Assembly (NCBI GenBank): GCA_021108295.1
Contig: JAIORF010000102.1
Span: 7,260 to 71,259, forward strand
DNA: 64,000 nucleotides
Origin: a bacterium
GTDB taxonomy: Bacteria; Patescibacteriota; Dojkabacteria; SC72
Direction: 5' to 3'
Within the stretch, counting starts at the first letter, position 1; the number at the start of each line of letters is the position of its first letter. Positions 2,646-40,856 of the stretch are shown here, in pieces. The notes below the pieces were generated by a model. The model was given only the letters and a program-made list of their open reading frames with translations. It had not been told where the DNA came from and did not search any database. Made by a program: the position numbers and the translations under genes.

Positions 2646-2678
2646 GTTCATCGAAAGTTCATAACTGCTTGTTAAAAT
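2646..2678 (+). promoter_or_regulatory. Conserved motif GTTCATC-N4-GTTCAT-N6-TTGTTAAAAT ending 6 nt before the comEA ATG (copy 1 of 3)
   Basis: Direct repeats GTTCAT at 2646 and 2657 sit 11 bp apart. TGTTAAAAT (an extended -10-like sequence) is at 2670-2678 and the ATG at 2685. The same architecture occurs at 37686 and 40824. Confidence 0.5.
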
Positions 2679-2684
2679 GTAGTT

Positions 2685-3401
2685 ATGGATCAACAAAAAG
2701 ATAAAAACTTTCTAATATTCCTCTTAGTATCTTTTGTAGTTGGTTTTTTAGTGGGTGTATGTGTAGTATTACTGTTTTTTCCAGAGCCAATTTGTGAATG
2801 TGATGAGTTACAGGTTGCGGAACAAGAGGGAGAGTCCACTGTAGATGTTGTAGGAGAGAAAGAAGGGATTGTAGACGAAAAGGATACATTAGGCAAGAGT
2901 GTTTCACTCCCAGTATCACAGTGTAGTGTCATTGTCGATATCGCTGGTGCAGTAGAGTCTCCGGGTGTTTACTGCCTTGAAGAGGGTAGTACTATCATAG
3001 ACGCTGTTTATCAGGCGAAAGGGTTCACTAAAGGTATTGCTCAAAAATTTGTATCAATGAGTATGAACTTGTCATCTTCGCTCAGTGATCATCAGAAAAT
3101 ATATATACCTTTTCAAGAGGATGTATATTGTGAGATAAAGAGTTTACAATATATTGATAAAGTCGCAAACACTGGTAGCACGGCAAATAGTGGAGGTGAT
3201 ACTACTGGTAGTACTACTACATGTGTGAATATTAATACTGCTAGTATAGAAGAATTAACACAACTAGATGGTATAGGGGAATCTACAGCACAAAAGATTA
3301 TAGATGCGAGACCTTATAGTGAAACATCCGACATTTTAAATGTGAGTGGAATAGGGGAGGCAACCTATGAAAAGTTTAAGGATGACATATGTGTCTATTA
3401 G
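2685..3401 (+). CDS. comEA: Competence protein ComEA (membrane-anchored, SLBB plus tandem helix-hairpin-helix DNA-binding)
   Basis: An N-terminal TM helix is followed by an SLBB-like segment (VIVDIAGAVESPGVYCLEEGSTIIDAV). The C-terminus is NINTASIEELTQLDGIGESTAQKIIDARPY...ILNVSGIGEATYEKF. Confidence 0.8.
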   Translation: MDQQKDKNFLIFLLVSFVVGFLVGVCVVLLFFPEPICECDELQVAEQEGESTVDVVGEKEGIVDEKDTLGKSVSLPVSQCSVIVDIAGAVESPGVYCLEEGSTIIDAVYQAKGFTKGIAQKFVSMSMNLSSSLSDHQKIYIPFQEDVYCEIKSLQYIDKVANTGSTANSGGDTTGSTTTCVNINTASIEELTQLDGIGESTAQKIIDARPYSETSDILNVSGIGEATYEKFKDDICVY

Positions 3402-5018
3402 ATGAAGAATGTAATACAAAAATTTATTTATTTGTATAAATGTTCCATACTCATATTTGAATATGTTAGAGATATTCCGATTCTGTCTATTTCCCTTTTT
3501 GCGATTTTCATTGATTGGGTATCTCTGAAAATCTACTACCATTATTTTACAGAGGAGTATGATTTAAGAAAACTGCTTATCTTTATCTCTATTTCTGTAC
3601 TAGTGAACATTGTATGTGTAATTGTCTACTGTGTGGAATTTTCACGGAGGCAAGAAAGGGAGGGTTTGGGTAGTAGAAGTACTGTTCAAATTTTGTTTGT
3701 GTTGGTATTACTACTCTTACGCTTGGTGTTGTGTGTAAGTAAAGACTTCCAGAATGGAGGGGATATTGAAGGTTTCACAGAGGTAAATGAGCCATTCTTT
3801 ATAGAAATTGGGGAGGTGTCTAAGAGCAAGGGGGATAAGCAAGAGATTGTTTTCAAATATGAGGGGGTGAAGGGTATTGGGTATGTAAATTGGTTCGAGA
3901 ATATAAAAATTGGGGATGTGTGTGAGGTGTATGGTGAGCTATCGGTGCCTGAAAACTTTCAAGACTTTGATTATCGAGGGTATCTCAGAAATAAAGATAT
4001 TTTTCTATATGGTAATAGGTTGTGTTTTGGAAAGTGTGAGTACGAGATGAACTATTTCGATATATCTAGTTATGTTCTTTCTCTCAAGAGAGCTCTTAGG
4101 GAGTTTAGAGATATTCTAAGTCGGAATATTGATATGAATCTGCCAGAACCACAATCTTCGTTGTTAGTGGGTATATTGTTTGGATCAGAGAGGGCGTTTA
4201 GTGAGGATTTCGAGAATTATTTGCGTATTAGTGGTACTACCCACATTATTGCTGCTTCTGGGTACAATGTGACGATATTAATATTGTTGTGTAGTAGGTT
4301 ATCGGGGTTCTTAAAAAAGAAATCGAGTTTAATATTTTCTCTCGTTGCAATATGGCTGTTTTGTATCTTTAGTGGGTTAGGTGCCTCTATACTTCGTGCT
4401 ACTGTTATGGGCTCTATTACAATATTGGCGTTGATTTCAGGGAATGTTAGGAATATACATATATTGATACCAATGGGTATTCTCATATTAATATTGATTA
4501 ATCCTAAGATTTTGTTTGATATTGGTTTTCAGTTATCAATATTGGCTACATTGGGGTTAGTATATCTTATGCCTAGTATGGCGGAGTGTGTGAAGAGGGT
4601 TTTTGGTATTAAGAAGGTGTTTAGTTGGGTTCAGGACTTCTTTCTTAGTACTCTTAGTTGTACTTTGGCTACACTTCCTGTTTCTATATCAATCTTTGGT
4701 AAGGTTTCCTTAGTGTCTGTATTTGCTAATGTGATAATATTGCCTCTTACTGGCTCTACGATGTTGTATGGTGTTGTAGCATTAGTCTTTTCATTCATAT
4801 CCCGCACTATCGGTCATTATCTATTTTCTATCCCATATTTCCAACTAAAGGTTTTTGAAAAGACAGTTTCTTTCTTTGGTGCTTTGCAGTGGGGTTACAT
4901 TGATGTTGAGAATTCGCTTGTAGGGGTAGTAATTGGTTTGTTTCTTATTTTCTTTTGTATGTATTTTTATCCTACTGACGAGGAGAATTACTATGTTAAA
5001 AAATATTACAGTTTCTAA
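3402..5018 (+). CDS. comEC: ComEC/Rec2 DNA-uptake channel, N-terminal (DUF4131 plus competence-domain) part
   Basis: Polytopic membrane protein carrying LLVGILFGSERAFSEDFENYLRISGTTHIIAASGYNVTIL, the ComEC competence-domain signature. The usual C-terminal metallo-beta-lactamase domain lies in the next, overlapping ORF. Confidence 0.75.
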   Translation: MKNVIQKFIYLYKCSILIFEYVRDIPILSISLFAIFIDWVSLKIYYHYFTEEYDLRKLLIFISISVLVNIVCVIVYCVEFSRRQEREGLGSRSTVQILFVLVLLLLRLVLCVSKDFQNGGDIEGFTEVNEPFFIEIGEVSKSKGDKQEIVFKYEGVKGIGYVNWFENIKIGDVCEVYGELSVPENFQDFDYRGYLRNKDIFLYGNRLCFGKCEYEMNYFDISSYVLSLKRALREFRDILSRNIDMNLPEPQSSLLVGILFGSERAFSEDFENYLRISGTTHIIAASGYNVTILILLCSRLSGFLKKKSSLIFSLVAIWLFCIFSGLGASILRATVMGSITILALISGNVRNIHILIPMGILILILINPKILFDIGFQLSILATLGLVYLMPSMAECVKRVFGIKKVFSWVQDFFLSTLSCTLATLPVSISIFGKVSLVSVFANVIILPLTGSTMLYGVVALVFSFISRTIGHYLFSIPYFQLKVFEKTVSFFGALQWGYIDVENSLVGVVIGLFLIFFCMYFYPTDEENYYVKKYYSF

Positions 5019-5790
5019 GGTATTGAGGATACTAGAGTGTGTAGTGTGGGTCTTTTGTGGTGTATATGTTTTGAGTGTGAGGCAGAGCCATGAGCGTATT
5101 GTAATATTTGATGTAGGGCAGGGGGATAGTATATTGATACAGAAGGGTGATTTTGAAATATTGGTAGATGGTGGGGAGGATGATACGGTGGTGTATAGGA
5201 TGGGGGAGTATATGGAGTGGGATGATAGGGTGATTGATGTTGTAGTTATCACTCATATGCATAGTGATCACTACATGGGTATTAAGTATTTACTTGAGAG
5301 TTACGAGGTAGGGTTATTTGTATTGTCTGTTAATTGTACAGATCTTTGTAGCGAGTTTAGAGAGTTTAATCATATTGATGTGAGTATGGGGGATACTTTG
5401 GAGTATGGTGGTATCCATATTGATATTTTGTGGCCTAGAGTGGGGGAATTGGATAGGAATTTGAATAATGATTCAATTGTAATGTTGGTAGAATGGTTGG
5501 ATAAGAGGGTTTTGTTAATGGGTGATGCTGAAGTAGAGGTTGAGAAACTATTGTTAGAACACTCTAGGTCATATGTTGCTGATATCGATATTCTTAAAGC
5601 AGGGCACCACTGTTCAAAGACTGCGTCTAGCTATGGGTTCCTAATTACGACATCTCCTAAGTTTGCTATTTGTAGTTGTGGAGAGGAGAATAGGTTTGGG
5701 CATCCTCATATTGAGGCATTGGATAATTTTGTAGAGGTGGGTGTCCCATATATTCTTACTTGGGAATATGGTGATTATATTGTAGAATAG
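4993..5790 (+). CDS. comEC: ComEC C-terminal metallo-beta-lactamase domain, encoded as a separate ORF in another frame
   Basis: ERIVIFDVGQGDSILIQ...VVITHMHSDHYMGI is the MBL HxHxDH motif. The start is moved to the ATG at 4993, preceded by AGGAG at 4981-4985. It overlaps the upstream comEC part by 26 nt in a different frame. Confidence 0.65.
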   Translation: MLKNITVSKVLRILECVVWVFCGVYVLSVRQSHERIVIFDVGQGDSILIQKGDFEILVDGGEDDTVVYRMGEYMEWDDRVIDVVVITHMHSDHYMGIKYLLESYEVGLFVLSVNCTDLCSEFREFNHIDVSMGDTLEYGGIHIDILWPRVGELDRNLNNDSIVMLVEWLDKRVLLMGDAEVEVEKLLLEHSRSYVADIDILKAGHHCSKTASSYGFLITTSPKFAICSCGEENRFGHPHIEALDNFVEVGVPYILTWEYGDYIVE

Positions 5791-7792: not shown

Positions 7793-8797
7793 TTGACCAC
7801 AAGCTCCACCAATATCACTACCCATTGAGCGTCTAGTTGTTGTGTTAATACCCCTGTTCTCAAGGACTTTCCTAAATCGGTCTACTGTATTGTTTGAAGA
7901 AGCCTCGTAATCAATATCTTTGTATGTATTAAATTTGATGAGATTTACAAAGGCTAATCTCTTGTAGAGTAGTTGTGAGAGTTCAATTGCATGCTCAGGT
8001 TGATCATTTATGCCTTTGATCAAGGTATATTCGTATGTGATACGCTTGTTGTAAGTATCTTCGTACCAGGTAGCAAACTCCATAAGTTGTTCTAGAGGGT
8101 ATAGTTTGGAGATTGTTGACATAATTGAAGCACGCAGTTTTTGGTTGGGTGCATGTAGACTGATAGCGAGTCGTGGAATGTATCCTTTACTAAAGAATTC
8201 TTTGAGCTGTGGAACATAGCCTACTGTGGAGATTGTTACATGTCTAATTCCTATACTCAGTTTGTCCATATTATTGACAATATCTATTGATTTCTCAATG
8301 TTTGTAAGGTTAAGCATAGGTTCGCCCATACCCATATATACGAGATTTGTGACTCTTCTGCCTTTAGGTACAAGCATTCTCTGGAAATGGAGTATCTGAT
8401 CTACAATCTCCCTATAGGTTAGATTGCGGTGGAAGCCCATTTTCCCAGTAGCGCAGAAGGAACAGCCTACAGGGCAACCACTCATACAGCTTACACATAC
8501 TGAGTTTCTACCGTCGCTGTATTGCATTAATACAGCCTCAATATCGAAACCATCCTTAGTTTTGAATTCCGTCTTGATAGTCTTCCCATCTGAGGAATGG
8601 TTATCCTTGATATGGGTCAAAGTAGAGAACTCGACTTCTTGTTTGAGTAATTCTCTTAACTCTTTGGACCAAGTAGAGAGTTTGTCGAATGAAGGGATAG
8701 CTTGTTTGTAGTATTGGTTGTTAAACTGGTCTATTTTGTATTTAGGGAGATTGTGTGTATTTGCAAAGTGTTCAATCATGGTTGTATTATATATCAA
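7763..8797 (-). CDS. rlmN: Radical-SAM 23S rRNA / tRNA m2A methyltransferase RlmN
   Basis: CPVGCSFCATGKMGFHRNLTYREIV is the CxxxCxxC cluster with the RlmN-specific context. The C-terminus carries GGACGQL. The true start may be the internal Met at 8779. Confidence 0.8.
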   Translation of the reverse strand: MIYNTTMIEHFANTHNLPKYKIDQFNNQYYKQAIPSFDKLSTWSKELRELLKQEVEFSTLTHIKDNHSSDGKTIKTEFKTKDGFDIEAVLMQYSDGRNSVCVSCMSGCPVGCSFCATGKMGFHRNLTYREIVDQILHFQRMLVPKGRRVTNLVYMGMGEPMLNLTNIEKSIDIVNNMDKLSIGIRHVTISTVGYVPQLKEFFSKGYIPRLAISLHAPNQKLRASIMSTISKLYPLEQLMEFATWYEDTYNKRITYEYTLIKGINDQPEHAIELSQLLYKRLAFVNLIKFNTYKDIDYEASSNNTVDRFRKVLENRGINTTTRRSMGSDIGGACGQLHPTNSSNT

Positions 8798-8820
8798 TAT
8801 TATTTCTAAACATACTGTCT

Positions 8821-10218
8821 ATGATGTTTGATAAGAAACAGGACACAAGTGATCCATATCATTCTGGATATATTGCTCCTAAGGGTTGGCAACCGAAAAA
8901 TCCCGATGAGGATTATGTAATATCCCTTTTGGATATTGAACTATCTGATGGTATTGGTATGGATAAATTTGAGACTGCTGTGGCTGCTTGTGCAGCAGAG
9001 AGTTCTACTGGTACATGGACTAAGGTCTATGATGGGAAGGATAGTGGGGTGAAGATGGCAGAGAAAATGAGGGCTGTAGCGTTTGATTTGGATCCTCAGA
9101 CAAAGACCTTTAAGATTGCTTACAAGAAGGAGCTGTTTGAGACAGGAAATCTCTCTGGTTTACTTGCAGGTGTTGTTGGTAATATCGATGGTATGAAGAT
9201 GCTAAAGGCTTTTAGGTGTCTTGATGTGAGATTCCCAAGAGAATGGGTAGAGTCTATGCCAGGTCCTGCATTTGGTATAGATGATATGAGGGATTTGTTA
9301 GGGATTCCTACTGGCCCTATCCTTTGTACTGTACCTAAGCCAAAGGTTGGTAGGACTGCTAAGGAACAGGCTAATCTTGCTAAGATATTGTTCACAGCAG
9401 CGGATGGTGAGTATCAGGGTATTAAGGATGATGAGAACTTAACTAGTTTACATTTTAGTAAGTTTGAGGATAGGGTGGAGGAGATACACAAGGTGAGAAA
9501 GGATATTGAGGGAAAGACTGGTAAAAAGAAGTTCTATCTTTGTAATGTGACGCATAGCAATATTGATGTGATGTTAGAAAGAGCTGAGATGATTAAGTCT
9601 GCTGGTGGTAGGTGGATGATGATGGATGTTGTTGTTACTGGATTTAGTGCAGTTCATACCATGAGGTTAAAGAATCCTGGTTTAGCTATACATGCACATA
9701 GGGCAATGCATAGTTTGTTTGATAGAGAGAGTGGTCCGGGTGTGTATGATATGGGTGAAATTAAGGATTTTTCAATGTCTATGATTGTGATTGCTAAATT
9801 GATGCGTTTACTTGGTGTTGACGCACTTCATGGTGGTGCTCCTAAGACTAAGATGGAGAACTATGGAGAGCCAAAGCTTATCAAAGATGCTTTGCAGGCG
9901 GATAATACGCCATCTTCTAGTATGACTCTGGGACAGAATTGGTTTGGTATGAAGCCAGTATGGCATGTTGCTTCTGGGGGTTTACACCCTGGCTCTTTGG
10001 AAGAAGTGATTAAACAGTTAGGTGAAGATATCATGATACAGTGTGGTGGTGGAGTGTTGGGTCATCCATGGGGCATAGAGGCTGGTGTGGAGGCTGTAGT
10101 GCAGGCTAGAGACCTTTCAATGAGTAGGGTGGATATGAAGGGTTGGATAGTGGAAAATCCTGATAGTGCTTTGGCTAAGGCTGCTCAACATTGGGGGTTT
10201 GATCCAAGGATTGTATAG
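8821..10218 (+). CDS. rbcL: RuBisCO large subunit, form II/III type
   Basis: CTVPKPKVG (K175/K177), GIKDDENL (carbamylated-Lys loop), AIHAHRAMHS, and GGLHPG...QCGGGVLGHPWG are present. The start is set at the MMFDKK ATG to clear the rlmN overlap. Confidence 0.85.
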   Translation: MMFDKKQDTSDPYHSGYIAPKGWQPKNPDEDYVISLLDIELSDGIGMDKFETAVAACAAESSTGTWTKVYDGKDSGVKMAEKMRAVAFDLDPQTKTFKIAYKKELFETGNLSGLLAGVVGNIDGMKMLKAFRCLDVRFPREWVESMPGPAFGIDDMRDLLGIPTGPILCTVPKPKVGRTAKEQANLAKILFTAADGEYQGIKDDENLTSLHFSKFEDRVEEIHKVRKDIEGKTGKKKFYLCNVTHSNIDVMLERAEMIKSAGGRWMMMDVVVTGFSAVHTMRLKNPGLAIHAHRAMHSLFDRESGPGVYDMGEIKDFSMSMIVIAKLMRLLGVDALHGGAPKTKMENYGEPKLIKDALQADNTPSSSMTLGQNWFGMKPVWHVASGGLHPGSLEEVIKQLGEDIMIQCGGGVLGHPWGIEAGVEAVVQARDLSMSRVDMKGWIVENPDSALAKAAQHWGFDPRIV

Positions 10219-12319: not shown

Positions 12320-15175
12320 TCACTGTTTCTTTTTAAGCCATTGTCCAGTATAGCTTTCCTTGCAATTCATAATATCTTCAACGCTTCCTTGAGCAACAAT
12401 GTTTCCGCCATTCTCTCCTCCATCTGGACCGAGATCAATTATCCAATCAGCTTGTTTTACTACATCAAGATTGTGTTCGATGATAATTACAGTGTGACCT
12501 TTCTCAACTAGACCACGAAGAAGAATGAGGAGTTTATCTACATCGTAGAAATGAAGACCTGTAGTTGGCTCATCTAAAATATATACTGTATGTCCCCGTG
12601 CCATCTTGGCAAGTTCTTTTGAAAGTTTTATTCTTTGGGATTCCCCACCAGAGAGAGTGAGTGCTGATTGTCCTAGTTTGATGTATCCAAGACCCACCTC
12701 CTGCAAAACATTTAATTTCCTATAGATGGTTGGAATATTTTCAAAAAACTTTAGAGCTTCGTCTACAGACATATGAAGAACTTCTGAAATATTCTTTCCT
12801 TTGTAATCAATGTCGAGGGCTTCTTTATTGTATCTTTTCCCATCACATTGGTCGCAGGTGATGTACATATCGGGTAAAAACTGCATCTCTACCTTGATTT
12901 GGCCGTCTCCCTTACACTTTTCACACCTTCCACCCTTCACATTGAAGCTAAATCTTCCTGCTTTATACCCTCTAGCTCTCGCTTCTTGGGTTTGGGCAAA
13001 AAGATCTCTAATTGGTGTAAAAACGCCGGTATATGTGGCTGGATTGGACCTTGGTGTGCGTCCAATAGGGGATTGGTCAATGCTTATGACCTTATCTATG
13101 GCATCAAGGCCGTCTATATCTTCGTACTGTCCTTCGATTTGTTTTCCATGCATTTTGCTATTCATCAGGGCAGGGTAGAGGGTGTCATTTATTAAAGAAG
13201 ATTTCCCACTTCCAGATACTCCTGTGATGCAGGTGAGCGTATTTGTTGGAATTTGAAGGTCAATTTGTTTGAGGTTGTGAGTTGTAACTCCAGTCATGTA
13301 GATACGGTCTTTTTGAGTGACACTCTTTTTCTTTTGGATCTCGCTGTTAATCTTAGACCCTACAGTACACTCCTTGTTTAGATACTTAGCAGTATACGAA
13401 TTGGATTGCTTTATATCTTTTATACTACCTTGTGCTACAATTTCCCCTCCTTTATTACCTGCATTGGGACCAATATCTACTATGTAGTCAGCATGATGCA
13501 TTGTTTCTTCGTCGTGTTCCACTATGATCACAGTATTTCCAGAGTCTCTTAAGTTCTCAAGAGAGCCTAGGAGTCTACTTACATCTCTCGAATGTAGCCC
13601 AATAGAGGGCTCATCGAGAACGTATAGCACACCTGAAAGGCCTGTGCCAATTTGAGAGGCAAGTCTAATTCTTTGTGATTCTCCACCAGAAAGGGTATTG
13701 GCTTTCCTAGAGAGGGTAAGGTAGTTTAGTCCTACATTTGTAAGAAATTCAAGTCGTGAGTTTATCTCTTTGAGGATAGGTTTAGAGATTGTTCTGCTAT
13801 TTCCTTTTAGCTTAAGATCGTTTAAGAACTCTTTTAACTCTGAAATAGGTAGTTGGGTTAGGTCTATGATGTTCTTTTCTCCTAGGCGTACAGAGAGAGA
13901 GTATGGTTTAAGTCTTTGGCCATTGCATAGGTGACAAATGATATCTTCCATATATTTCTCTATTTCAGTTCTTCTATACTCAGAGCTTGTTTCTTTATAT
14001 CCTCGTATCTGTTCATTTACTACCCCTTCGTATTGGATGTCGTAAGTTCGTTTTCTACCAAATCTGTTGGTATATTCTATTTTGTAGTAGGGGTTAGTAC
14101 CTTTTCCAAAGAAAATTAGATCAAATATTTCCGTTGGATAGTTTTTGATACGTGTTTTAAGATCAAAGCCGTGTTCCACAGAAAGTGATTCTAGGATTCT
14201 CTTGCTCCAAGAGTCTTTTGCCATTCTATTGGCCCAAGGGAAAATTCCTCCTTCGAGTATTGTTAGGTTGGGGTTATAAATTTTTTGTACATTTACCTCT
14301 TGCACATGTCCCAATCCCGCACAATTCGGACATGCCCCTTCTGGAGAGTTGAAAGAGAAGGTTGCGGGCGTTATCTTGGGGTAGGAGAGGTTGCAGTTAA
14401 AGCAGGTGAACTTTTCTGAGAAGAAGTGATCTTTATTTTTACTTCTAACGATTATTTCTCCATCTGACATATTGGATGCTACCTCCAAAGAATCGATTAA
14501 ACGTTTATGGAATTTCTCATCTTCAAATTGTAGAGTGTTTAGTCTGTCGACTATAAGTTCTATATTATGCTTTTTGTTTTTGTCCACAGGAATGTCGTCT
14601 ATATCATCAAGGTGGTAGGTATTCCCATCTACAATTACTCTTAGGAATCCCTTGTTGAGAAGTTTCTCAAAGAGTCCAGAGTATTCTCCTTTCCTATTTT
14701 TTACTAAAGGGGAAAGGATTTGAAATTTCTCTTCGTTTTTGAATTCGGATTCTACGAGGTCAGCAATTTGTTGTATTGTTTGTGATTTAATTATCTCTCC
14801 ACACTTAGGACAGTGTGGTACTCCTAGGTGTCCGTAAAGGAGTCTAAGGTATCCATAGATTTCGGTGATTGTTCCTACGGTAGATCTAGGATTCTTGCTT
14901 GTGGTTTTTTGGTCAATTGAGATGGCAGGAGAGAGTCCTGTTATGGATTCTACATCTGGTTTTTTCATTACTCCTAAGAATTGTCTTGCGTAAGAGGAGA
15001 GTGATTCTACATATCGTCTTTGACCTTCTGCATAGAGGGTGTCAAAAGCCAAAGAGGATTTACCACTTCCGGATACTCCAGTGAATACTATTAATTTGTT
15101 TTTTGGTAATTCTAGCGAGACATTTCTAAGATTGTTTTGTCTAGCGCCTTTAATTACGATTGTTTCGTTTTGCAT
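12320..15175 (-). CDS. uvrA: Excinuclease ABC subunit A
   Basis: Two ABC ATPase modules (GVSGSGKSSLAFDTLYAEGQRRYVESLS; GVSGSGKSSLINDTLYP) and zinc-finger CxxC pairs in a 951-aa protein. Confidence 0.95.
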   Translation of the reverse strand: MQNETIVIKGARQNNLRNVSLELPKNKLIVFTGVSGSGKSSLAFDTLYAEGQRRYVESLSSYARQFLGVMKKPDVESITGLSPAISIDQKTTSKNPRSTVGTITEIYGYLRLLYGHLGVPHCPKCGEIIKSQTIQQIADLVESEFKNEEKFQILSPLVKNRKGEYSGLFEKLLNKGFLRVIVDGNTYHLDDIDDIPVDKNKKHNIELIVDRLNTLQFEDEKFHKRLIDSLEVASNMSDGEIIVRSKNKDHFFSEKFTCFNCNLSYPKITPATFSFNSPEGACPNCAGLGHVQEVNVQKIYNPNLTILEGGIFPWANRMAKDSWSKRILESLSVEHGFDLKTRIKNYPTEIFDLIFFGKGTNPYYKIEYTNRFGRKRTYDIQYEGVVNEQIRGYKETSSEYRRTEIEKYMEDIICHLCNGQRLKPYSLSVRLGEKNIIDLTQLPISELKEFLNDLKLKGNSRTISKPILKEINSRLEFLTNVGLNYLTLSRKANTLSGGESQRIRLASQIGTGLSGVLYVLDEPSIGLHSRDVSRLLGSLENLRDSGNTVIIVEHDEETMHHADYIVDIGPNAGNKGGEIVAQGSIKDIKQSNSYTAKYLNKECTVGSKINSEIQKKKSVTQKDRIYMTGVTTHNLKQIDLQIPTNTLTCITGVSGSGKSSLINDTLYPALMNSKMHGKQIEGQYEDIDGLDAIDKVISIDQSPIGRTPRSNPATYTGVFTPIRDLFAQTQEARARGYKAGRFSFNVKGGRCEKCKGDGQIKVEMQFLPDMYITCDQCDGKRYNKEALDIDYKGKNISEVLHMSVDEALKFFENIPTIYRKLNVLQEVGLGYIKLGQSALTLSGGESQRIKLSKELAKMARGHTVYILDEPTTGLHFYDVDKLLILLRGLVEKGHTVIIIEHNLDVVKQADWIIDLGPDGGENGGNIVAQGSVEDIMNCKESYTGQWLKKKQ

Positions 15176-16886: not shown

Positions 16887-17903
16887 ATGATAGGAAAGAA
16901 ATTAGGAATTGATTTAGGTACGGCCAACTCTGTGGTATTCGTGCAGGGGGAGGGTATCGTATTTGTAGAGCCAACTGTTGTGGCTATTGATGTTAATAGT
17001 TACAAAGTTATTGCTGTAGGAAAAGAAGCAAAGGAGATGATTGGTAAGACTCCTGAGAATATTGTAGCCAAGAGGCCTCTTAGGAATGGTGTTATCGCAG
17101 ATTCTCGGGTGACAGAAGCCTTGCTTAAATACTTCTTTGATAAGGCTTTGGGTAAGACTAGGTTTTTCAAACCGGATGTTGTGATAAGTGTGCCTGCAGG
17201 TATTACTACTGTAGAGCAGAGGGCTGTACTTAAGGCTGCTAATGCTGCTGGTGCAAAGAATATTACACTTCTTCCTGAACCACTGCTTGCTGCACTTGGT
17301 GCAGAACTTCCAATTAATACTTCCTCGGGTAATATGATAGTTAATATGGGAGGTGGTACTTCAGAAATTGCAGTAATCTCTTTGGATGGAATTGTAAGGT
17401 ATGATTCCTTGAGGGTGGCTGGAGATGCTATCAATGAGGCGATAATAGCATATATGAGAAAGAGAAAGGGTGTATTGATAGGAGAACAGACTGCAGAGAA
17501 AGTTAAGTTTGAAATAGGATCTGCACTTGAGATTGAAAAGCCCCTAGAGATGGAGGTAAGGGGTAGGGATGTTGGTGCAGGAGTACCTAAGGCAGTATTG
17601 GTTAATTCTAATGATATTGCTCAAGCTGTTAAGATGCCACTGAGAAAAATTATACAGTCCATTAAGGGTGTTCTTGAGCAAACTCCTCCTGAGCTTTCTG
17701 CAGACATTATAGATAGGGGTATGGTAATGAGTGGTGGTACTGCAGAGTTGAGAAATCTAGACAGATTGATATCCAAAGCTACAGGTGTTCCAGCCCATGT
17801 TGCTAATGAACCAATATTTTGTGTAGCTAAGGGTACTGGTATGGCTTTAGAGCTAATCGCTTCTGGACAAAGGGTCTTTGTCTTTGAAAAAAAACTTAGT
17901 TAG
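16887..17903 (+). CDS. mreB: Rod-shape-determining actin homologue MreB (copy 1)
   Basis: IGIDLGTANSVVFV phosphate-1 motif, DIGGGT-type motif (NMGGGTSEIAV), and MreB length. Confidence 0.9.
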   Translation: MIGKKLGIDLGTANSVVFVQGEGIVFVEPTVVAIDVNSYKVIAVGKEAKEMIGKTPENIVAKRPLRNGVIADSRVTEALLKYFFDKALGKTRFFKPDVVISVPAGITTVEQRAVLKAANAAGAKNITLLPEPLLAALGAELPINTSSGNMIVNMGGGTSEIAVISLDGIVRYDSLRVAGDAINEAIIAYMRKRKGVLIGEQTAEKVKFEIGSALEIEKPLEMEVRGRDVGAGVPKAVLVNSNDIAQAVKMPLRKIIQSIKGVLEQTPPELSADIIDRGMVMSGGTAELRNLDRLISKATGVPAHVANEPIFCVAKGTGMALELIASGQRVFVFEKKLS

Positions 17904-17917
17904 TGTATATTAACAGT

Positions 17918-19084
17918 ATGATTAGTATGTTTAGTAAAAAAGGAAGAAGTGAGAGAAAGTTAGAAGAAGTAACAAAGCTTCTTCAACGGCTTCGTATTCC
18001 AATTGGGTTGGTATTTACACCAACAAATCTCAAAGAAGAGAAAAAGAGGTTCTTTAATTCAGAAATGTATGAGCCTAATTTTGAGTATAGGGGGATAAAG
18101 AATAAGAATAATGAGATATTTAGAGAGTTGTCTGGTCTAAAGACTATTACAGATATTGACCCAAGGATTTCTGATTTCTATATTGAGTTAATAGAGTCAA
18201 AGAAAGACTCTAGTGCTTTAATGCATGGTGTGGGGAATAATGAATTGGTGACAGAACTGTCATTGAAAAAGTATGGAAAGGTTTCTCCGAAGCTTTTTAG
18301 AAATGCTAGTAGAGTGCTTAGGGGTAAGTTGGATAGTTATAATGTTGTTCAGGCAACTACTGTTGATAAAGGTAAGGTCTTGAATTACAATCAAATAGAT
18401 GAGGTTTTCAAGGTCGCTTTTGAAAGTCTTGGACTATCGGATTGGTCTATATTCCCTTCCAAAAACATTTCAAAGAATGCGGTTAAGGTTGGAATTAAAC
18501 GTAAACAGATATTTGTTGATCCAAATATCACACGATCAGAGTATAAGTTAAAGAAACTTCTTGTGCATGAGATTGGTACTCATGTTTTGCGATCACACAA
18601 TGGTTTTAAAACTGGGTTCCCAGCTTTAGGTAATGCTAATTTGCCCTCATATCTTGATGTAGAAGAGGGTCTTGCGACTTGGAATGAGGAAGCTATGGGT
18701 TTTCTTACTGATAAATGGCTTAAGAAGAAAGCTGGCTTGGTATGGGCAATATATATTGGAGAGGAGATGACGTTTAGGCAGTTGTATAATGCATTGTCAG
18801 GTAGTTTCTTAAAATATTCTGCATGGGATATTGCTTATAGGGTCAAGAGAGGACTAGGGGATACCAGTTATTCGGGAATATATGTGAAGGATGTAGTTTA
18901 TTTCAGGGGTTTTAGGAAGGTAAAGCGTGTATTGGAGAAGGATAGTGCAATGTATGAGAAGCTGTATGCTGGTAAGATAAATATTAAACAGACTAAGTGG
19001 GTTGATGAGGGGTTGTTACCAAAGCCACCAATTGTGCCGTCTAAGGAGTTGTGGAATGATATTTTTGAGAAAGCTAATCTCTAA
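17918..19084 (+). CDS. DUF1704 / QEGLA-motif (MATCAP-family) putative zinc metallopeptidase
   Basis: HEIGTH (HExxH) is followed by VEEGLATWNEE (QEGLA-like). The start is moved from the GTG at 17903 to the first ATG. The stop overlaps the convergent ATP-grasp gene by 11 nt. Confidence 0.5.
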   Translation: MISMFSKKGRSERKLEEVTKLLQRLRIPIGLVFTPTNLKEEKKRFFNSEMYEPNFEYRGIKNKNNEIFRELSGLKTITDIDPRISDFYIELIESKKDSSALMHGVGNNELVTELSLKKYGKVSPKLFRNASRVLRGKLDSYNVVQATTVDKGKVLNYNQIDEVFKVAFESLGLSDWSIFPSKNISKNAVKVGIKRKQIFVDPNITRSEYKLKKLLVHEIGTHVLRSHNGFKTGFPALGNANLPSYLDVEEGLATWNEEAMGFLTDKWLKKKAGLVWAIYIGEEMTFRQLYNALSGSFLKYSAWDIAYRVKRGLGDTSYSGIYVKDVVYFRGFRKVKRVLEKDSAMYEKLYAGKINIKQTKWVDEGLLPKPPIVPSKELWNDIFEKANL

Positions 19085-20030
19085 AGGCTGTAATCATAGC
19101 TTCTGCAATGTTTATAGGCTCTCCATCTGTAATTTTAGTCTCATAGGCTTTGAAACCAGGATGTAAGCTAATCTCTTGTATATATGGTTTATCGTTTTTA
19201 AACATAAAGTCTACTGCGATGAAGTCTGCATCGAAGATATTAGCGACCTTCTGTGCAATTTGTGTGATTTCTTCGTTTGGTTCGTTGTACATATGATAAC
19301 TTCCACCACTTACTGTCATAAAACCTTTTGTTGCCTTACGTTTCCAACCACCAATTACTTTACCAAACTTTACAAATATGCGTACGTCTTCTGGATTGGT
19401 AGAGAATTCTTGTAAAAAGAAGGCCTTATGGTCTTGTTTACATAAATGTTTTTGGTTTAGATCTTTTACATTGTCTAGTTTGTATACATTCTTTTTTACT
19501 TTCTTCTTACCAAATTTCCTATCAATTCTGTTTACTCCTGCGTATTCTTTGATAATTAGGGGGTAGTTGTTTAATACATCTCTAGCTTTAGTGTAATCGC
19601 CACTAGTAGAGTAGTATGTGTCAAAATATGGGATTTTGTGTGTAGCAAAGATTTGTGCAGTGTAGATTTTGTTGTAGTAGGGGAGTTTCTTGATAGCGTT
19701 ACTGTTATATACCAAGATCTTGTTATCAGGGTGAGATAAATTGTATTGATCAGTCCAGTCGACTATCAGTCTTTTCATCTGGTATTCTCTTGGACTATGT
19801 AAATTGTGACCTCTGAGTATGATATGAGAGTATTCTGTGATATGGTTACCTGCGAATTTTAGATGTGTTTCACCATCGAGTAGGAAGAATTCTATTTGGT
19901 TGTTGTATACAAAATCGTATGGAATATCTTTTTTGTCCAATTCCTCCATCATCCGTTTTACAGCTGAAGGGTATTTACCAACTCCTTTGACTTTTACTCG
20001 TGGTTCTTTGTCTATGATGAGGTATTTCAT
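19074..20030 (-). CDS. RimK-like ATP-grasp amidoligase (operon gene 5)
   Basis: ATP-grasp pattern: IKEYAGVNRIDRKFGKK, FFLQEF...EDVRIFVKFGKVIGGWKRK, and ADFIAVDFMFKNDKPYIQEISLHPGF. The ATG overlaps the upstream stop (TAATG). Confidence 0.6.
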   Translation of the reverse strand: MKYLIIDKEPRVKVKGVGKYPSAVKRMMEELDKKDIPYDFVYNNQIEFFLLDGETHLKFAGNHITEYSHIILRGHNLHSPREYQMKRLIVDWTDQYNLSHPDNKILVYNSNAIKKLPYYNKIYTAQIFATHKIPYFDTYYSTSGDYTKARDVLNNYPLIIKEYAGVNRIDRKFGKKKVKKNVYKLDNVKDLNQKHLCKQDHKAFFLQEFSTNPEDVRIFVKFGKVIGGWKRKATKGFMTVSGGSYHMYNEPNEEITQIAQKVANIFDADFIAVDFMFKNDKPYIQEISLHPGFKAYETKITDGEPINIAEAMITAFRD

Positions 20031-21739
20031 TATATTGTGTTGATTATTTTAATATGTTTCTTTCGTTTATATTTCTTTATAATCTTCATTTCGGTTTTGT
20101 GGGATTTAATGTCTTTTGTGACAAAGAGAATATCTATTTTATCAAATCCTAGTCCATGTTCTTTGACTTCATCTAGGTCTCTGTATTGTAGGATGATGGT
20201 GTCTAGGGCTGCGTTGACTTTGAGGGCTTCAATGGCCTTCCAGGTATCAATATTGTCATTAAATTCACAGTTATTAATTAATATCTTATGGTCTTTGTAT
20301 ACACCGACATTTTCTTCATTATTAATGTATCCTTTTTTCCTTAGTAGTGTAGGGATATCGTCTGTACTTTGGCCAATTACTACATATTTCTTTGTGTGAT
20401 TGTCTTTGAGTAGGGCTTGAACGTAGTAGGTGAGTGCTTCCGTTTGTACTTCTCCAATTACTGGGAAGAAGTTAAGGTATGATTCTGGCATAGTATTGAC
20501 CTCTAGTATTGCACCGTTGTCTTTTGTGAGTGGCTTTGAGATGTCTTTACACATTATATCTACACCTAAGGTAAATACATGCATTGTAGAGGCTATTGAT
20601 TCTACGATTATTTTTATCTCAGGAGATACTTTGTCTGAGAAGTCTTCTGTTATTCCTCCTCTACTCATACTTGCTATACCTCGTACATAGATTTTTTGAT
20701 TTTTTGTAGGTATAGATTCTAATGTTAAGCTCTGTTTTTCTAAGAAGGTTGTTAGTGGATCATCAAATATTATTGGCTTTAAGGTATGTGAAGGGTTACT
20801 TGTATTTCTTCTTGGGTCTTTGTTTGTTTCGTCTATGAGTTTCTTGATAGAAGATTTTCCATTTCCGATGATAAAGGCTGGTATTCGTTTGGTACAGACT
20901 TTTAGTTCCCCGTTGATAACCAAAAGCCTGTAGTCTGAGCCGTCTTTAGGGCCGTCTACCTGTTCCTGTATCATTATCTTTTTTTGCCAAGCACTTCTTT
21001 TTTTTGCTTCTACCTGTTTTGTGGCGTATTCTAAAGCATTGTAGGCTTTTTCCTTAGAGTCAATACCTACGACAACACCACTTCCTCCTGTTAGACCAGT
21101 TGGTTTGATAACTAGAGGCTTCTCATATTGAGCCCAGACTTTATCAATGTCTTTTTTGGAATCAATAATTTCCCATTTAGGTAGGGGCAGACCCATTCGT
21201 TCTATGATTTTGTTTGTTGACCATTTGTCTCGTTGAACTTTCATACCAAAGGTTGAGTCTTTTGTTGAAGCTATGGAGCAGGTTGCTTCAGATCCTTTAC
21301 CACAGCCTAGTGTGTAGTATCTATTCCAAGTGTAACCGAATCCTGCGGAGGTTCCGGGAACTATATCTTCGTTAGCAATTGTGAGTGTAGTTTCGTATCC
21401 TAGTTCCTGAGCTTTATGTAGTATTGGGATGGTAGACATAGAGTTAACTCTTTGTTTGATTACGGTGCCTAGTGTGTAATCTTGAGCTTCTTGTAGAGTT
21501 ATTTCTGAGTTGGAGAGTTTTCTAAAGGTTTTTGCACAATTTCTCCAGATACCTGGTAATTTGGAGCTTATAGTTAGGAGGTTGTTTTCTAATTTGTAGT
21601 TTTCAATAAATATTGGGTGAAATCCTTGGATTAGGTTTAGTAGTTTGAAGAGTTCTTCGCTTTCTTTAATGTCTGAGATCTTAATTTGAGTAGTAGGGGA
21701 TTCAAGGTTTAGGCCTTGTATTGTTTTGAGGTTTTTCAT
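20030..21739 (-). CDS. ATP-grasp ligase resembling the cyanophycin-synthetase N-terminal (G) domain, with N- and C-terminal extensions (operon gene 4)
   Basis: LVIKPTGLTGGSGVVVG, YRLLVINGELKV, and IIGNGKSSIKKLIDETNKDPRR resemble CphA-like GDGKxTIxELI..N.DPRR. MSRGGITEDFSDKV is also present. No Mur-ligase domain is seen. Confidence 0.6.
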   Translation of the reverse strand: MKNLKTIQGLNLESPTTQIKISDIKESEELFKLLNLIQGFHPIFIENYKLENNLLTISSKLPGIWRNCAKTFRKLSNSEITLQEAQDYTLGTVIKQRVNSMSTIPILHKAQELGYETTLTIANEDIVPGTSAGFGYTWNRYYTLGCGKGSEATCSIASTKDSTFGMKVQRDKWSTNKIIERMGLPLPKWEIIDSKKDIDKVWAQYEKPLVIKPTGLTGGSGVVVGIDSKEKAYNALEYATKQVEAKKRSAWQKKIMIQEQVDGPKDGSDYRLLVINGELKVCTKRIPAFIIGNGKSSIKKLIDETNKDPRRNTSNPSHTLKPIIFDDPLTTFLEKQSLTLESIPTKNQKIYVRGIASMSRGGITEDFSDKVSPEIKIIVESIASTMHVFTLGVDIMCKDISKPLTKDNGAILEVNTMPESYLNFFPVIGEVQTEALTYYVQALLKDNHTKKYVVIGQSTDDIPTLLRKKGYINNEENVGVYKDHKILINNCEFNDNIDTWKAIEALKVNAALDTIILQYRDLDEVKEHGLGFDKIDILFVTKDIKSHKTEMKIIKKYKRKKHIKIINTI

Positions 21740-21748
21740 TGGTTGGGA

Positions 21749-22735
21749 TTATGAATTTAGATATTTTTGTTGTATATATTTCATTATTGGTATTGCTACT
21801 CTTGCAATTTCTCCCTCATCTACTTTGTAGTGTATTCTAAGTCCTGGGTTGTAGTTGATTTCGTTAATACCACATTTCACTTTCTTGGTAATGTCTGGTG
21901 TTATTATATCTACACCTCCAAATTCTGTTCCTATGGCGTGTACTGCGTCTATTGCTAGCTGTTTGTAGTAAGGGTGTACTTCCTTATTGCATTCTTGTGT
22001 AGTTCCTCCTGTAGAGAGATTACAGCTATATCTTAGGATTATATCTTCTTTGTCTTGTGGTATGGAGTCTAGTGTCATATTGAGTTCACGGAGTCGTAAG
22101 TTTACTTCATTATCAATCTTGATTGGTTTTAAGAGGTCGGTTTTTCTTTTGTTATTAAAAAGATTTATTAGTTCTTGTATGCTGTTTTTACCATCGCCTA
22201 TTACATGTGCGGCTTTTCTTCTTACTGTACCTACGATTTCATTTCCTACTACTAGGAGTCTGTAGTTTTCTCCTTCTAGAAATTCTTCACCTAAGACGCC
22301 TATATTACCTTTTGATTTGTTTTTTGTTTTAGCTATGGTATAAGCCTCTAGGACTTCTTTTTCATTGCTTGGGAGTAGTGTAATTCCTATTCCTCCTAGT
22401 TGTTGTGTTGGTTTGATCACAATTCTTTTATATTTGGCAAAGAATTTTATTGCATCAATTGGGCTTTTGAGTTTCTCTTGTTTTGGAACTGGTATTGCAG
22501 ATTCTTCAAGTACTAGGTTTGTGAGGTGTTTTCTTTTTGCAATTGTTGCGGATGTGGTATTGGTAAGTGGTGTAGCGGTGTTTATTATGTGCCATACCTT
22601 ATCTTTGCATCTGAATTCTGCAAGAAGGCTTGGTACGAGTACTTTGTAGTGTATTTTTAATTCATCGGCAGCTTCTAGGTAGTATGCTAGGTGTACATTG
22701 CCAGCTTCTTTTAGGTAGTCTGTGTATGTTTTCAT
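21749..22735 (-). CDS. Stand-alone ATP-grasp ligase, cyanophycin-synthetase G-domain-like (operon gene 3)
   Basis: IVIKPTQQLGGIGITLL, YRLLVVGNEIVGTVRRKAAHVIGDGKNSIQELINLFN, and NLSTGGTTQECNKEVHP...GGVDIITPD. Confidence 0.6.
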   Translation of the reverse strand: MKTYTDYLKEAGNVHLAYYLEAADELKIHYKVLVPSLLAEFRCKDKVWHIINTATPLTNTTSATIAKRKHLTNLVLEESAIPVPKQEKLKSPIDAIKFFAKYKRIVIKPTQQLGGIGITLLPSNEKEVLEAYTIAKTKNKSKGNIGVLGEEFLEGENYRLLVVGNEIVGTVRRKAAHVIGDGKNSIQELINLFNNKRKTDLLKPIKIDNEVNLRLRELNMTLDSIPQDKEDIILRYSCNLSTGGTTQECNKEVHPYYKQLAIDAVHAIGTEFGGVDIITPDITKKVKCGINEINYNPGLRIHYKVDEGEIARVAIPIMKYIQQKYLNS

Positions 22736-22744
22736 ATATGTATA

Positions 22745-24211
22745 TTACTTAAATATAGAGGAGGTATCAATGAGGTATCCTGTGAGTTCAGATCTCCCTA
22801 TTACTAGAGGGTAGGGGATATCGTTTGTAATGACGGCGTTTAAGGCCTTTTTATCTCCAGATATTTTAATACGGATATTAATTACAGGTCTGATTACAAT
22901 TTGTCCATCTTCTACAATTTTTGCAAGTCTTACTATGTCTGGATGGTTGGTGATTTTCTTCCCTTTGGCATCAATATATTCTTGTGCGTCTTTAAAGGTG
23001 GGGAAGCTCTTTGGTGTTTCTAACTGTTTGAAGTATTTATTTATATCGGTGTATCCTGTTCTGCTAGAGAGTCTTGTGGAGATACGGGTGGTAAGTACAC
23101 CGGTGTCTATGAATGATTTAGTTAGTTCTTTTTCTATCTTTATTTTTGTTTTCTTTTTCTTGTTTAGGATTTTAGGTTTGTGGTATACGTATACTTTTTC
23201 AGTGATGTTGACGACCTTACGACCACTTATAGATTCGATGCTTTCTTCAATTTCTCCCCCAAAGAGGTTTTTTCCTATTCTAATACCGTGTTTGATGCTT
23301 TTTACTTCTAGTCCTTTGACTTTTTCGAGTCTCCATCTTAGACCTGCTTGATTTGCTACCTGTATTCCTAGTCCTGGTCTTGCGTTGACCTCAAACACAA
23401 CGGGTCCTTTGTCACGGTCAATTGCGATGTCTACTCCGATATATCCGAGTTTTGAGGCTTTTTGGCATTTGAGGGCAATTGTAAGGAGGTTGTTCCAATT
23501 TGGTATTTGGATACCACTTAGAGATTTGTTTTCTTCAAGGTCTACTGTTTTGTCAATCATTTCGTATGTATCACTAATTAGGCTTGTTGGTTGCATATGC
23601 ATTGAGTAGGTGGTTATCCCTGTGCTTATATCGATGCCTGTACATATTGCTCCAGTGTGTAGGTTGGCTGTACCGTTAGATCTTTTGGTAGGTAGTCGTG
23701 TCATTGCCATGATGGGGACTCCATTAAAGCAGATTATTCTAATATCAGGTACTCCTTTGTAGGAGTATTGTTTAAGGAATGGGTCTGTTTTTACTCTTTC
23801 TTCGATGATTGCAGTATCTTTTCGGGAACCCATGGAGTATCTGCCTTCTAGGATGTTTTCTATATGTAGTATTATGTCCCTTTTAGACATTATCTTGCCG
23901 TTTGGTCTAATCCAGGCGTTTTGTCCTTTCTTTTTGCCGTAGAATACTATGATTCCGTTTCCTCCTGTTCCTTTGTTTGGTTTTATCACAAAGCTTTTTG
24001 GTAGTGATTCCCAGTCAAGGTATTTCAGTTGTTTTTTGCTTCTAATGAGTTTGTATACGTCGGGTGTTTTTATCCCTTCTTTTTTTAATATTCTTTTGGT
24101 GACTATCTTGTTGTCTGCAATGGCTTTTGCAGAGAGAGAGTTGTATGGTCTTATATATTCTTGGTTTCTTCTGTTTAATCCAAGAATGTCTTTGAGGGTG
24201 TTCCTATGCAT
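22745..24211 (-). CDS. ATPgrasp_ST / alpha-L-glutamate-ligase-related RimK-like ATP-grasp (operon gene 2)
   Basis: The N-terminal ILGLNRRNQEYIRPYN motif typifies the 7TM-associated RimK-related family. It is followed by FVIKPNKGTGGNGIIV and GVDIAIDRDKGPVVFEVNARPGL. Confidence 0.6.
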   Translation of the reverse strand: MHRNTLKDILGLNRRNQEYIRPYNSLSAKAIADNKIVTKRILKKEGIKTPDVYKLIRSKKQLKYLDWESLPKSFVIKPNKGTGGNGIIVFYGKKKGQNAWIRPNGKIMSKRDIILHIENILEGRYSMGSRKDTAIIEERVKTDPFLKQYSYKGVPDIRIICFNGVPIMAMTRLPTKRSNGTANLHTGAICTGIDISTGITTYSMHMQPTSLISDTYEMIDKTVDLEENKSLSGIQIPNWNNLLTIALKCQKASKLGYIGVDIAIDRDKGPVVFEVNARPGLGIQVANQAGLRWRLEKVKGLEVKSIKHGIRIGKNLFGGEIEESIESISGRKVVNITEKVYVYHKPKILNKKKKTKIKIEKELTKSFIDTGVLTTRISTRLSSRTGYTDINKYFKQLETPKSFPTFKDAQEYIDAKGKKITNHPDIVRLAKIVEDGQIVIRPVINIRIKISGDKKALNAVITNDIPYPLVIGRSELTGYLIDTSSIFK

Positions 24212-24866
24212 TATCTTTTTCTTCTAGTATAGATTGAAATCTAAGAAGGTCTTTGAATCTTAGGCCTTTGAATTGTCCAATTAGTATGTTTATGAGTATG
24301 AATACGGGTATTATCCAGAGGTTGTTTACTAGGTTGGTGGAGATTACGTCTCTTGTGATGATAAACCAGCCTAGTGCTGAGATTGCGATTGTAGAGAAGA
24401 GTGTAAGGAATGATGTTTTGAGGGATTTCTTTACATATTGTTTTGTAAAGAAGTCTCCTAGTGCTGCGATTGAGATCATAGCTAGGGATGGGATGTATGC
24501 CATGTTTTCTAGTGTTAGTCCATATTTGTCTATTACCATTAGGAAAAGTGTTAGGGAGAGTATGAGTATGCAGTAGTTGATAGCGATTCTTGTTATGTAG
24601 TGCATTCTAATCCTTCGTAGCACAGAGTAGGAGAGTAGGGTGCTAAAGATTACTACGGTAGTAATTGCTAATCCATACTTGAGTCCTGTGTAGGAGTATG
24701 CGATTGCGAGTATTATGGGTGCGTATATTCCGTATGTTTTGTTACCGAAGATGTATCTTCCGATACTTACTAGGGTAGCTAGTAGAGCAATTGTGATGAA
24801 GAGCTCTAAAGTTTGACTGGGTACACCATTTCCCAGTATCCAGGTTGTAAATGGAGAGTATTCCAT
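24204..24866 (-). CDS. Seven-helix integral membrane protein, probable 7TM partner of the ATP-grasp ligases (operon gene 1)
   Basis: Seven hydrophobic helices in 220 aa. It overlaps the downstream ATP-grasp gene by 8 nt, and it is the first gene after the rplL terminator. Confidence 0.5.
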   Translation of the reverse strand: MEYSPFTTWILGNGVPSQTLELFITIALLATLVSIGRYIFGNKTYGIYAPIILAIAYSYTGLKYGLAITTVVIFSTLLSYSVLRRIRMHYITRIAINYCILILSLTLFLMVIDKYGLTLENMAYIPSLAMISIAALGDFFTKQYVKKSLKTSFLTLFSTIAISALGWFIITRDVISTNLVNNLWIIPVFILINILIGQFKGLRFKDLLRFQSILEEKDNA

Positions 24867-26755: not shown

Positions 26756-26767
26756 TTACACGTATGG

Positions 26768-27437: not shown

Positions 27438-27449
27438 TATGGTGTATGG

Positions 27450-37686: not shown

Positions 37687-37717
37687 TTCATCTTTTGTTC
37701 ATTTCTGTTTGTTAAAC
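37686..37717 (+). promoter_or_regulatory. GTTCATC-N4-GTTCAT-N6-TTGTTAAAC motif ending 6 nt before the dprA ATG (copy 2 of 3)
   Basis: Repeats at 37686 and 37697 (11 bp apart). TTGTTAAAC at 37709-37717. ATG at 37724. Confidence 0.5.
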
Positions 37718-37723
37718 TTAACT

Positions 37724-38557: not shown

Positions 38558-38667
38558 GAGGACGCTCCTGCATCTTGTGGGGAATATTTGAACAGATTAG
38601 AGGGGGTGTATAACTGTTGTATAGATTTGACAGGAATAGCAGAGTGTATTCTTGACAATTATATTTT

Positions 38668-40824: not shown

Positions 40825-40856
40825 TTCATCTTTTGTTCATTTCCCTTTGTTAAAAT
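40824..40856 (+). promoter_or_regulatory. GTTCATC-N4-GTTCAT-N6-TTGTTAAAAT motif ending 5 nt before the radC ATG (copy 3 of 3)
   Basis: Repeats at 40824 and 40835. TTGTTAAAAT at 40847-40856. ATG at 40862. Confidence 0.5.

Follow-up and report, generated by a model that had tools for sequence, protein, structure and literature searches.

The stretch analysed here, called the window below, comprises 64,000 nucleotides of contig JAIORF010000102.1 (assembly GCA_021108295.1) from the metagenome-assembled genome of an uncultivated bacterium of Candidatus Dojkabacteria (WS6), a class of the Patescibacteria or Candidate Phyla Radiation (CPR). Named homologues of its DprA all come from Candidatus Dojkabacteria. 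Its G+C content is 35-39%, and ribosomal and cell-wall genes are present. Three short intergenic gaps, lying before comEA, dprA and radC, each hold a 33-bp element with the layout GTTCATC-N4-GTTCAT-N10-TAAA(A/C)T, referred to here as the box. The initial annotation had reported a motif of this kind before these three DNA-uptake and processing genes, and both the coordinates and the identities of the genes were confirmed. In Pfam searches the box-led genes encode ComEA (SLBB and HHH_3 domains), DprA (DNA_processg_A) and RadC (UPF0758_N and the RadC JAB domain). The genes upstream of the boxes encode cyclophilin (site 1), PBP2 (site 2) and TopA (site 3). The gaps between these genes and the following ATG measure 43, 37 and 37 nt, respectively, and the box fills the gap. 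All elements lie on the plus strand, and the ten bases between the second repeat and the -10 hexamer end in TGt at all three sites:

2646-2652, plus strand: comEA box, repeat 1, GTTCATC, at about -39 to -33
2653-2656, plus strand: comEA box, 4-bp spacer, GAAA
2657-2663, plus strand: comEA box, repeat 2, GTTCATA, at about -28 to -22
2670-2678, plus strand: comEA extended -10, TGtTAAAAT (TG 2670-2671, TAAAAT 2673-2678), 6 nt before the ATG at 2685; transcription is predicted to begin at the A of this ATG
37686-37692, plus strand: dprA box, repeat 1, GTTCATC, beginning with the G that ends the pbp2 TAG stop codon
37697-37703, plus strand: dprA box, repeat 2, GTTCATT
37710-37718, plus strand: dprA extended -10, TGtTAAACT (TG 37710-37711, TAAACT 37713-37718), 5 nt before the ATG at 37724
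40824-40830, plus strand: radC box, repeat 1, GTTCATC, whose first G is the last base of the topA TAG stop codon
40835-40841, plus strand: radC box, repeat 2, GTTCATT
40848-40856, plus strand: radC extended -10, TGtTAAAAT (TG 40848-40849, TAAAAT 40851-40856), 5 nt before the ATG at 40862

A search of the window with the pattern GTTCAT-N5-GTTCAT-N6-TTGTTAAA, allowing up to three mismatches, recovered exactly these three sites. Enrichment against shuffled sequence, which the initial annotation had proposed as a check, was calculated with 100 shuffles of the window; 0.03 sites were expected and none of the shuffles reached three. As the initial annotation had claimed, no other gene in the window is preceded by the box, and this holds even when the pattern is much relaxed. 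The genes that lack it include uvrA (12320-15175, minus strand), mfd, recR, dnaX and a radical-SAM gene.

To follow the box beyond the window, syntenic loci around the DprA and ComEC homologues were taken from progressively more distant relatives, with DprA identities of 81, 67, 60, 55, 53 and 45% and ComEC identities of 71, 55, 52 and 41%. The sequence nTTCAT-N5-nTTCAT-N10-TAnnnT-N5-7-ATG precedes comEA, dprA and radC at 20 sites in at least eight diverged Dojkabacteria lineages. The spacing is invariant, with five bases between the repeats, ten bases to TAnnnT and 5-7 nt to the ATG, and the 11-bp repeat period is kept in 20 of 20 sites. The two TTCAT cores carry 1.3-2.0 bits per position, and the T, the A and the final T of the -10 hexamer are also conserved, while the spacers drift. 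The first base of the repeat is G, A or T (0.5-0.6 bits across lineages), which gives a 7-bp repeat consensus of nTTCAT[C/A]. ATTCAT, TTTCAT and TTTAAT occur as repeats in other lineages, and some repeats contain TTAAT or TTCAG. The spacer between the repeats is A/T-rich (GAAA, TTTT, TTCT, ATAT, AAAT, ATTT, TAAT, ATAA and TGAA, with CTTT at one site), and the -10 hexamers vary within TAnnnT (TAAAAT, TAAACT, TAGAAT, TAATAT, TACTAT, TATAAT and others). The repeats are retained in the more distant lineages, where the -10 is weak and has no TG.

Where the upstream neighbour differs between lineages, the box remains attached to the downstream gene. Depending on the lineage, dprA follows pbp2 or a femAB-like gene and radC follows topA or an inserted ABC ATPase gene, and in each case the box stands directly before dprA or radC. 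A very permissive pattern applied to both strands of 239 kb of Dojkabacteria DNA gave 20 matches, compared with 3.1 in shuffles; 18 of the 20 were comEA, dprA or radC promoter sites and the other two were intragenic strays. A strict pattern was used to scan 185,579 species genomes, a collection that does not include the window's own genome. The Dojkabacteria matches were the comEA and dprA sites of two metagenome-assembled genomes, SMBSF33 and UBA9296, and the rest were chance matches and Firmicutes promoters. A pattern scan of metagenomes of the Joint Genome Institute (JGI) found 17 loci, one of them from Dojkabacteria (the contig of locus L035). Another of these loci, L045, was dropped as a further box site, as a small phage-like open reading frame (ORF) lies there. 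Viral contigs (L070-L077) yielded only Firmicutes-type boxes with leaders bearing a Shine-Dalgarno (SD) sequence.

An element placed directly after stop codons, which at site 1 can also form a hairpin, might not be a transcription signal at all. Readings of this kind would make it a repeat that arose by chance, the 3' end or terminator of the preceding gene, a DNA-uptake sequence or what is left of a mobile element. We regard all of them as very improbable. The number of sites expected by chance is far below three, the box is kept with the downstream gene despite different upstream genes, and the conserved TAnnnT keeps a constant spacing to the ATG. No stable fold is formed by sites 2 and 3, no terminator-like site was found, and the motif has no match in Rfam. 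An RNA-structure reading of the motif was likewise rejected, because it holds at comEA only. Three copies in 64 kb are too few for an uptake sequence. The box is a real, conserved and lineage-specific promoter module for DNA-uptake genes in one CPR class, and the suggestion of the initial annotation that it is a competence box of this lineage is supported by its presence before comEA, dprA and radC across the relatives.

The box promoters have no -35 hexamer and no TTGACA-like element; instead, the repeats occupy about -39 to -22. The initial annotation had described direct repeats one helical turn apart over the -35 region and an extended -10, and this description holds. A canonical -35 does exist in this lineage, since a TTGACA-N17-TATTTT promoter of its own precedes topA, the gene between dprA and radC, both in the window and in the relatives. 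dprA and topA are therefore separate transcription units, and the topA promoter, which is outside the box regulon, serves as a contrast:

38652-38680, plus strand: topA promoter, TTGACA-N17-TATTTT, with the topA ATG at 38692

As to the protein that reads the box, the initial annotation had offered a dimeric activator or an alternative sigma factor. Competence regulons of Firmicutes use a dedicated sigma factor (PMC6560143), and the module is promoter-sized and specific to competence genes, which would suit a ComX/SigH-like factor with GTTCAT as its -35. However, the box has two equally conserved direct repeats instead of one -35, and these sit 10 and 21 bp from the -10 hexamer, outside the 16-19 bp range of the sigma-70 family. 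The -10 itself is an ordinary sigma-70 TAnnnT, and it varies freely within that pattern like the housekeeping promoters of the same genome. There is also no similarity to the cin-box, TACGAATA. A sigma factor of this kind is improbable, and the activator half of the suggestion is the one that fits, because the repeats match the 7-4-7 arrangement recognised by the OmpR/PhoB family (PMC4832192).

The distance from the -10 to the start codon is 6, 5 and 5 nt at sites 1-3 and 5-7 nt in all relatives. From this geometry leaderless mRNAs are predicted for comEA-comEC, dprA and radC, in agreement with the initial annotation. Leaderless initiation is a general habit of the genome and not a property of the box, so this part of the earlier proposal does not single out the three genes. 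TAnnnT lies 5-7 nt before the start codon in 14 of the 48 genes of the window, compared with about 4 expected, and examples are argS, mreB2, mfd, rplJ, rplK and nusG. An SD-like sequence is found in 4 of the 48. A second and stronger peak of TAnnnT lies 14-16 nt before start codons (26 occurrences among the 48 genes); this could be a class of short-leader promoters or an A/T-rich initiation signal.

In regulons of the OmpR/PhoB type the A/T-rich spacer between half-sites serves wing contact in the minor groove, and the pho box lies about 10 bp from the -10. Proteins of the OmpR/PhoB family bind as tandem head-to-tail dimers to direct repeats of 7 bp, for which a 4-bp spacer is strictly required (PMC4832192, PMC4415409). 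The PhoP box of Streptomyces coelicolor is GTTCACC-N4-GTTCACC and the PhoB box of Escherichia coli is CTGTCAT(A/T)4CTGTCAT (PMC4832192, PMC4415409). PHO boxes share with the Dojkabacteria box the 7-bp direct repeats, the 4-bp A/T-rich spacer, the 11-bp period and the replacement of the -35 just upstream of the -10. The half-sites GTTCAtC of Dojkabacteria and GTTCAcC of Streptomyces are one base apart. Unlike PHO boxes, the Dojkabacteria box serves DNA-uptake and processing genes and not pst or pho genes, and leaderless transcripts are predicted from it. The Dojkabacteria DNA examined showed neither a Pho-regulon gene nor a PhoR/PhoB pair.

Other activators of the OmpR family have similar operators. 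The repeat of HssR is provisionally taken as GTTCATATT-N2-GTTCATATT. The tor boxes of TorR read CTGTTCATAT, with box 3 as CCGTTCATCC (PMC9239176), and HssR activates hrtAB via a direct repeat (PMC3968170, PMC6305404). Tandem direct repeats with a GTTCAT(A/C) core are common to TorR, HssR, HitR and the Dojkabacteria box (PMC9239176, PMC3968170), with the HssR repeat as given above. The TorR and HssR/HitR systems differ from it in that they control trimethylamine N-oxide respiration, haem efflux and other efflux, with mRNAs that have SD-bearing leaders, whereas the Dojkabacteria box fills the whole intergenic gap and would give leaderless mRNA.

The genome-collection scan also found about 12 promoters of Bacillales and Clostridia with the same geometry, GTTCAT-N5-GTTCAT-N10 followed by the -10. 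The boxes that were checked adjoin genes for a Response_reg plus Trans_reg_C protein and a histidine kinase, or precede efflux genes, which independently supports the OmpR/PhoB reading. The layouts include response regulator, histidine kinase, box and HlyD (L008), histidine kinase, box and RND (L029), and box followed by a response regulator (L017). This Firmicutes promoter, GTTCATA-N4-GTTCATA-N9-10-TGnTAnnnT, was seen at L008 (6541), L014 (6581), L017 (6961), L029 (7168) and about 10 other loci, and in the viral contigs L070-L077. It is probably the regulon box of an HssR/HitR-like subfamily of response regulators. The Bacillales boxes were considered as hrtAB promoters and rejected as such, as the genes downstream encode HlyD, RND, a response regulator and others; what is claimed for them is an OmpR-type two-component neighbourhood, not HssR.

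Taken together, we lean, though not strongly, towards the box being a complete activator-dependent promoter that is read by a tandem winged-helix regulator of the OmpR/PhoB type and that controls a small competence regulon of leaderless mRNAs. Two 7-bp direct repeats with a 4-bp A/T-rich spacer would stand in for the -35, with exactly 10 bp between them and a -10 of the sigma-70 type. The winged-helix regulator, which is most likely a response regulator of the OmpR/PhoB family, may bind the repeats as a head-to-tail dimer and recruit RNA polymerase. Judged from the geometry, transcription would start at or next to the A of the ATG and give leaderless comEA-comEC, dprA and radC mRNAs. The three units would form a small regulon dedicated to DNA uptake and processing that is conserved across Candidatus Dojkabacteria.

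Several points weigh against this proposal. The initial annotation had advised looking for a co-conserved regulator, and the search of the window and about 280 kb of related loci found no response-regulator or other regulator gene; specifically, there is no Response_reg plus Trans_reg_C, LexA or sigma-factor gene in this DNA. A 1929-aa Response_reg protein encoded near dprA at L059 only was considered as a candidate and judged irrelevant. The strict pattern gave no further sites in SMBSF33, UBA9296 or the JGI metagenomes, and neither an autoregulated regulator gene nor a target among the pilus genes, comF, ssb and recA turned up there. Extreme compaction of the gaps may account for part of the invariance in spacing. 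Finally, the -10 of the window clade, TGtTAAAAT, is near consensus and has the TG, and it belongs to the same class as the box-free, presumably constitutive argS promoter. The promoters could therefore be intrinsically active, and the box could be the operator of a repressor.

Such a repressor, maybe LexA-like, is a reading that the initial annotation did not consider. It would cover the -35 and spacer region of otherwise constitutive extended -10 promoters and keep the uptake genes off until it is removed by a signal such as DNA damage or starvation. RNA polymerase would be shut out by a protein at -39 to -22, and both forms of the window -10, TGtTAAAAT and TGtTAAACT, resemble the box-free promoters of argS and mreB2. 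In the window clade the box also has the GTTC-N7-GTTC direct-repeat spacing of the alphaproteobacterial LexA SOS box (PMC4951493, PMC9578287), and radC is among the LexA-regulated genes in some clades (PMC8565304). Across lineages, however, the core is TTCAT and not GTTC: the first G varies, and TTC is followed by a conserved A and T. Within the window, the box is missing before uvrA, a core SOS gene, and before mfd, recR and the radical-SAM gene, and the genes that have it are competence genes rather than SOS genes. The LexA palindrome of the Gram-positive type, GAAC-N4-GTTC, was also searched for in the window; it is not enriched (10 compared with 18 expected) and does not occur before uvrA. 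Distant lineages keep the repeats despite a weak -10 without TG, which suggests a need for an activator. The 7+4 repeats with an A/T spacer are the signature of OmpR/PhoB proteins (PMC4832192), and the Firmicutes promoters of the same geometry, in which the TG was included by the search pattern, adjoin OmpR-type two-component genes. We consider a repressor a serious alternative, though less probable than the OmpR/PhoB-type activator.

A further part of the activator proposal concerns RNA read through from the upstream housekeeping genes. Gaps of 37-43 nt have no room for a terminator or a ribosome-binding site, so read-through RNA should be poorly translated. At comEA a conserved hairpin would additionally bury the AUG in this RNA:

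2657-2690, plus strand: comEA hairpin, in which the arm 2657-2668 (repeat 2 and spacer) pairs with the arm 2679-2690 (discriminator and AUGGAU)

This 12-bp hairpin has a folding energy of -12.8 kcal/mol (z = -3.0), compared with no stable fold at the dprA and radC sites (z = +1.4 and +0.3). The stem is kept in three other lineages (L065 5253-5286, L063 9257-9290 and L064 9253-9286). In the four lineages 97.9% of the cells are paired, compared with at most 54% when the partners are slid, and four pairs show compensatory changes. The stem is absent at dprA, at radC and at the most distant comEA site (L067). RNA that continues from the cyclophilin gene is the only transcript in which the hairpin could arise, and there it would bury the AUG. 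A transcript starting at the comEA ATG lacks the 5' arm, which, on the basis of these four sequences, would fit translation of the box-driven leaderless mRNA only. Expression of the three units would thus depend on the box-driven leaderless transcript.

The half-site is one base off the Streptomyces PHO box, and for this reason the regulator may even be the phosphate-starvation regulator itself. In this fuller form, a response regulator of the PhoP/TorR/HssR group would directly switch on a minimal uptake regulon via leaderless promoters without a -35, and read-through RNA would be kept untranslatable, at comEA by the hairpin that sequesters the AUG. We put this forward as a speculative extension that is unlikely to hold in all its parts.

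The genes served by the box form the following units:

2685-5790, plus strand: site 1 operon, comprising comEA (2685-3401), comEC (3402-5018) and an ORF with a metallo-beta-lactamase domain (about 4993-5790)
37724-38557, plus strand: dprA, whose N-terminus M(E/K)FNK is kept from this ATG in relatives
40862-41497, plus strand: radC, whose N-terminus MLPREKF is conserved from this ATG

Conservation of the DprA and RadC proteins begins exactly at the proposed ATGs, which supports these start codons. The start of comEC abuts the stop codon of comEA. ComEC and DprA of the window are identical to the NCBI proteins MCD4811517.1 and MCD4811551.1. The competence/DUF4131 part and the metallo-beta-lactamase part of ComEC are encoded by separate ORFs in different frames with an overlap of about 26 nt. 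This split is common to all Dojkabacteria loci examined (the window, L062, L063, L064, L065 and L067) and reflects either a stable separation of the two ORFs or a programmed frameshift. In the relative with 81% DprA identity (L032 13797-16409 and L033 10169-12781), a DpnII-type restriction-modification cassette begins 20 nt after radC, just downstream of the box-driven gene, and consists of an N6_N4 methylase, a DpnII endonuclease and a D12 methylase. It is reminiscent of Streptococcus pneumoniae, in which DpnA is a competence-induced methylase of single-stranded DNA.

Joint control of comEA/EC, dprA and radC is known from the ComX regulon (PMC6560143) and the CRP-S regulon (PMC1635313). The streptococcal cin-box of ComX, the gammaproteobacterial CRP-S site read by CRP and Sxy, and the Bacillus ComK boxes share with the Dojkabacteria box that a short lineage-specific motif marks comEA/comEC, dprA and radC and not housekeeping genes (PMC6560143, PMC1635313). 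The form of the element is different. The Dojkabacteria box consists of two direct repeats in tandem, one turn apart, at -39 to -22, which sets it off from a -10-type sigma box, a 22-bp palindrome and AT-tract boxes. It also differs from the known competence regulons in that three operons have been found so far. Because the ComX and CRP-S regulons have this gene set as their conserved core and the CPR is competent via comEC, 'competence box' is a fair label.

Other features of the window were also recorded. A form II/III-like RuBisCO large subunit gene (8755-10218) adjoins a radical-SAM gene, and this arrangement, which is kept in relatives, is typical of the nucleotide-salvage pathways of the CPR. 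Ribosomal protein S2 (41941-43077) has a C-terminal extension that matches the C-terminal (HhH) domain of the RNA polymerase alpha subunit, and the fusion is conserved across Dojkabacteria (the window, L032, L035, L036, L039, L059 and L060). Between rplJ and rplA, at positions 26469-28083, a unit of about 685 bp occurs three times in tandem, with a 245-nt core that is 92-100% identical between copies; each unit has a small ORF (h109, h106) and an identical upstream region. Four RimK/ATP-grasp genes, a MATCAP-like carboxypeptidase gene and a gene for a 7TM_transglut membrane protein are clustered at 17903-24866 and may form a system for peptide ligation or peptide modification.

Patescibacteria make up a large share of bacterial diversity and lack de novo nucleotide synthesis. 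They are naturally competent through comEC (PMC10633639), and our literature searches found nothing on the regulation of DNA uptake in this group. With the box, comEA-comEC, dprA and radC of one CPR class are tied together by a concrete, testable cis-element. It indicates what type of regulator to expect, and its motif can be used to search complete genomes for further members of the regulon and for an autoregulated regulator gene. The box is also an example of extreme promoter compaction, with stop codon, operator, -10 and start codon within 37 nt. Following those of ComX and CRP-S, the regulon marked by the box is the third, and an independently evolved one, in which radC is grouped with comEA and dprA; this makes a stronger case for a role of RadC in transformation. 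If the switch by a response regulator is true, the Candidate Phyla Radiation would have its first defined circuit for the control of competence, and DNA uptake in these bacteria would be tied to an environmental signal, for example nutrient or phosphate limitation.
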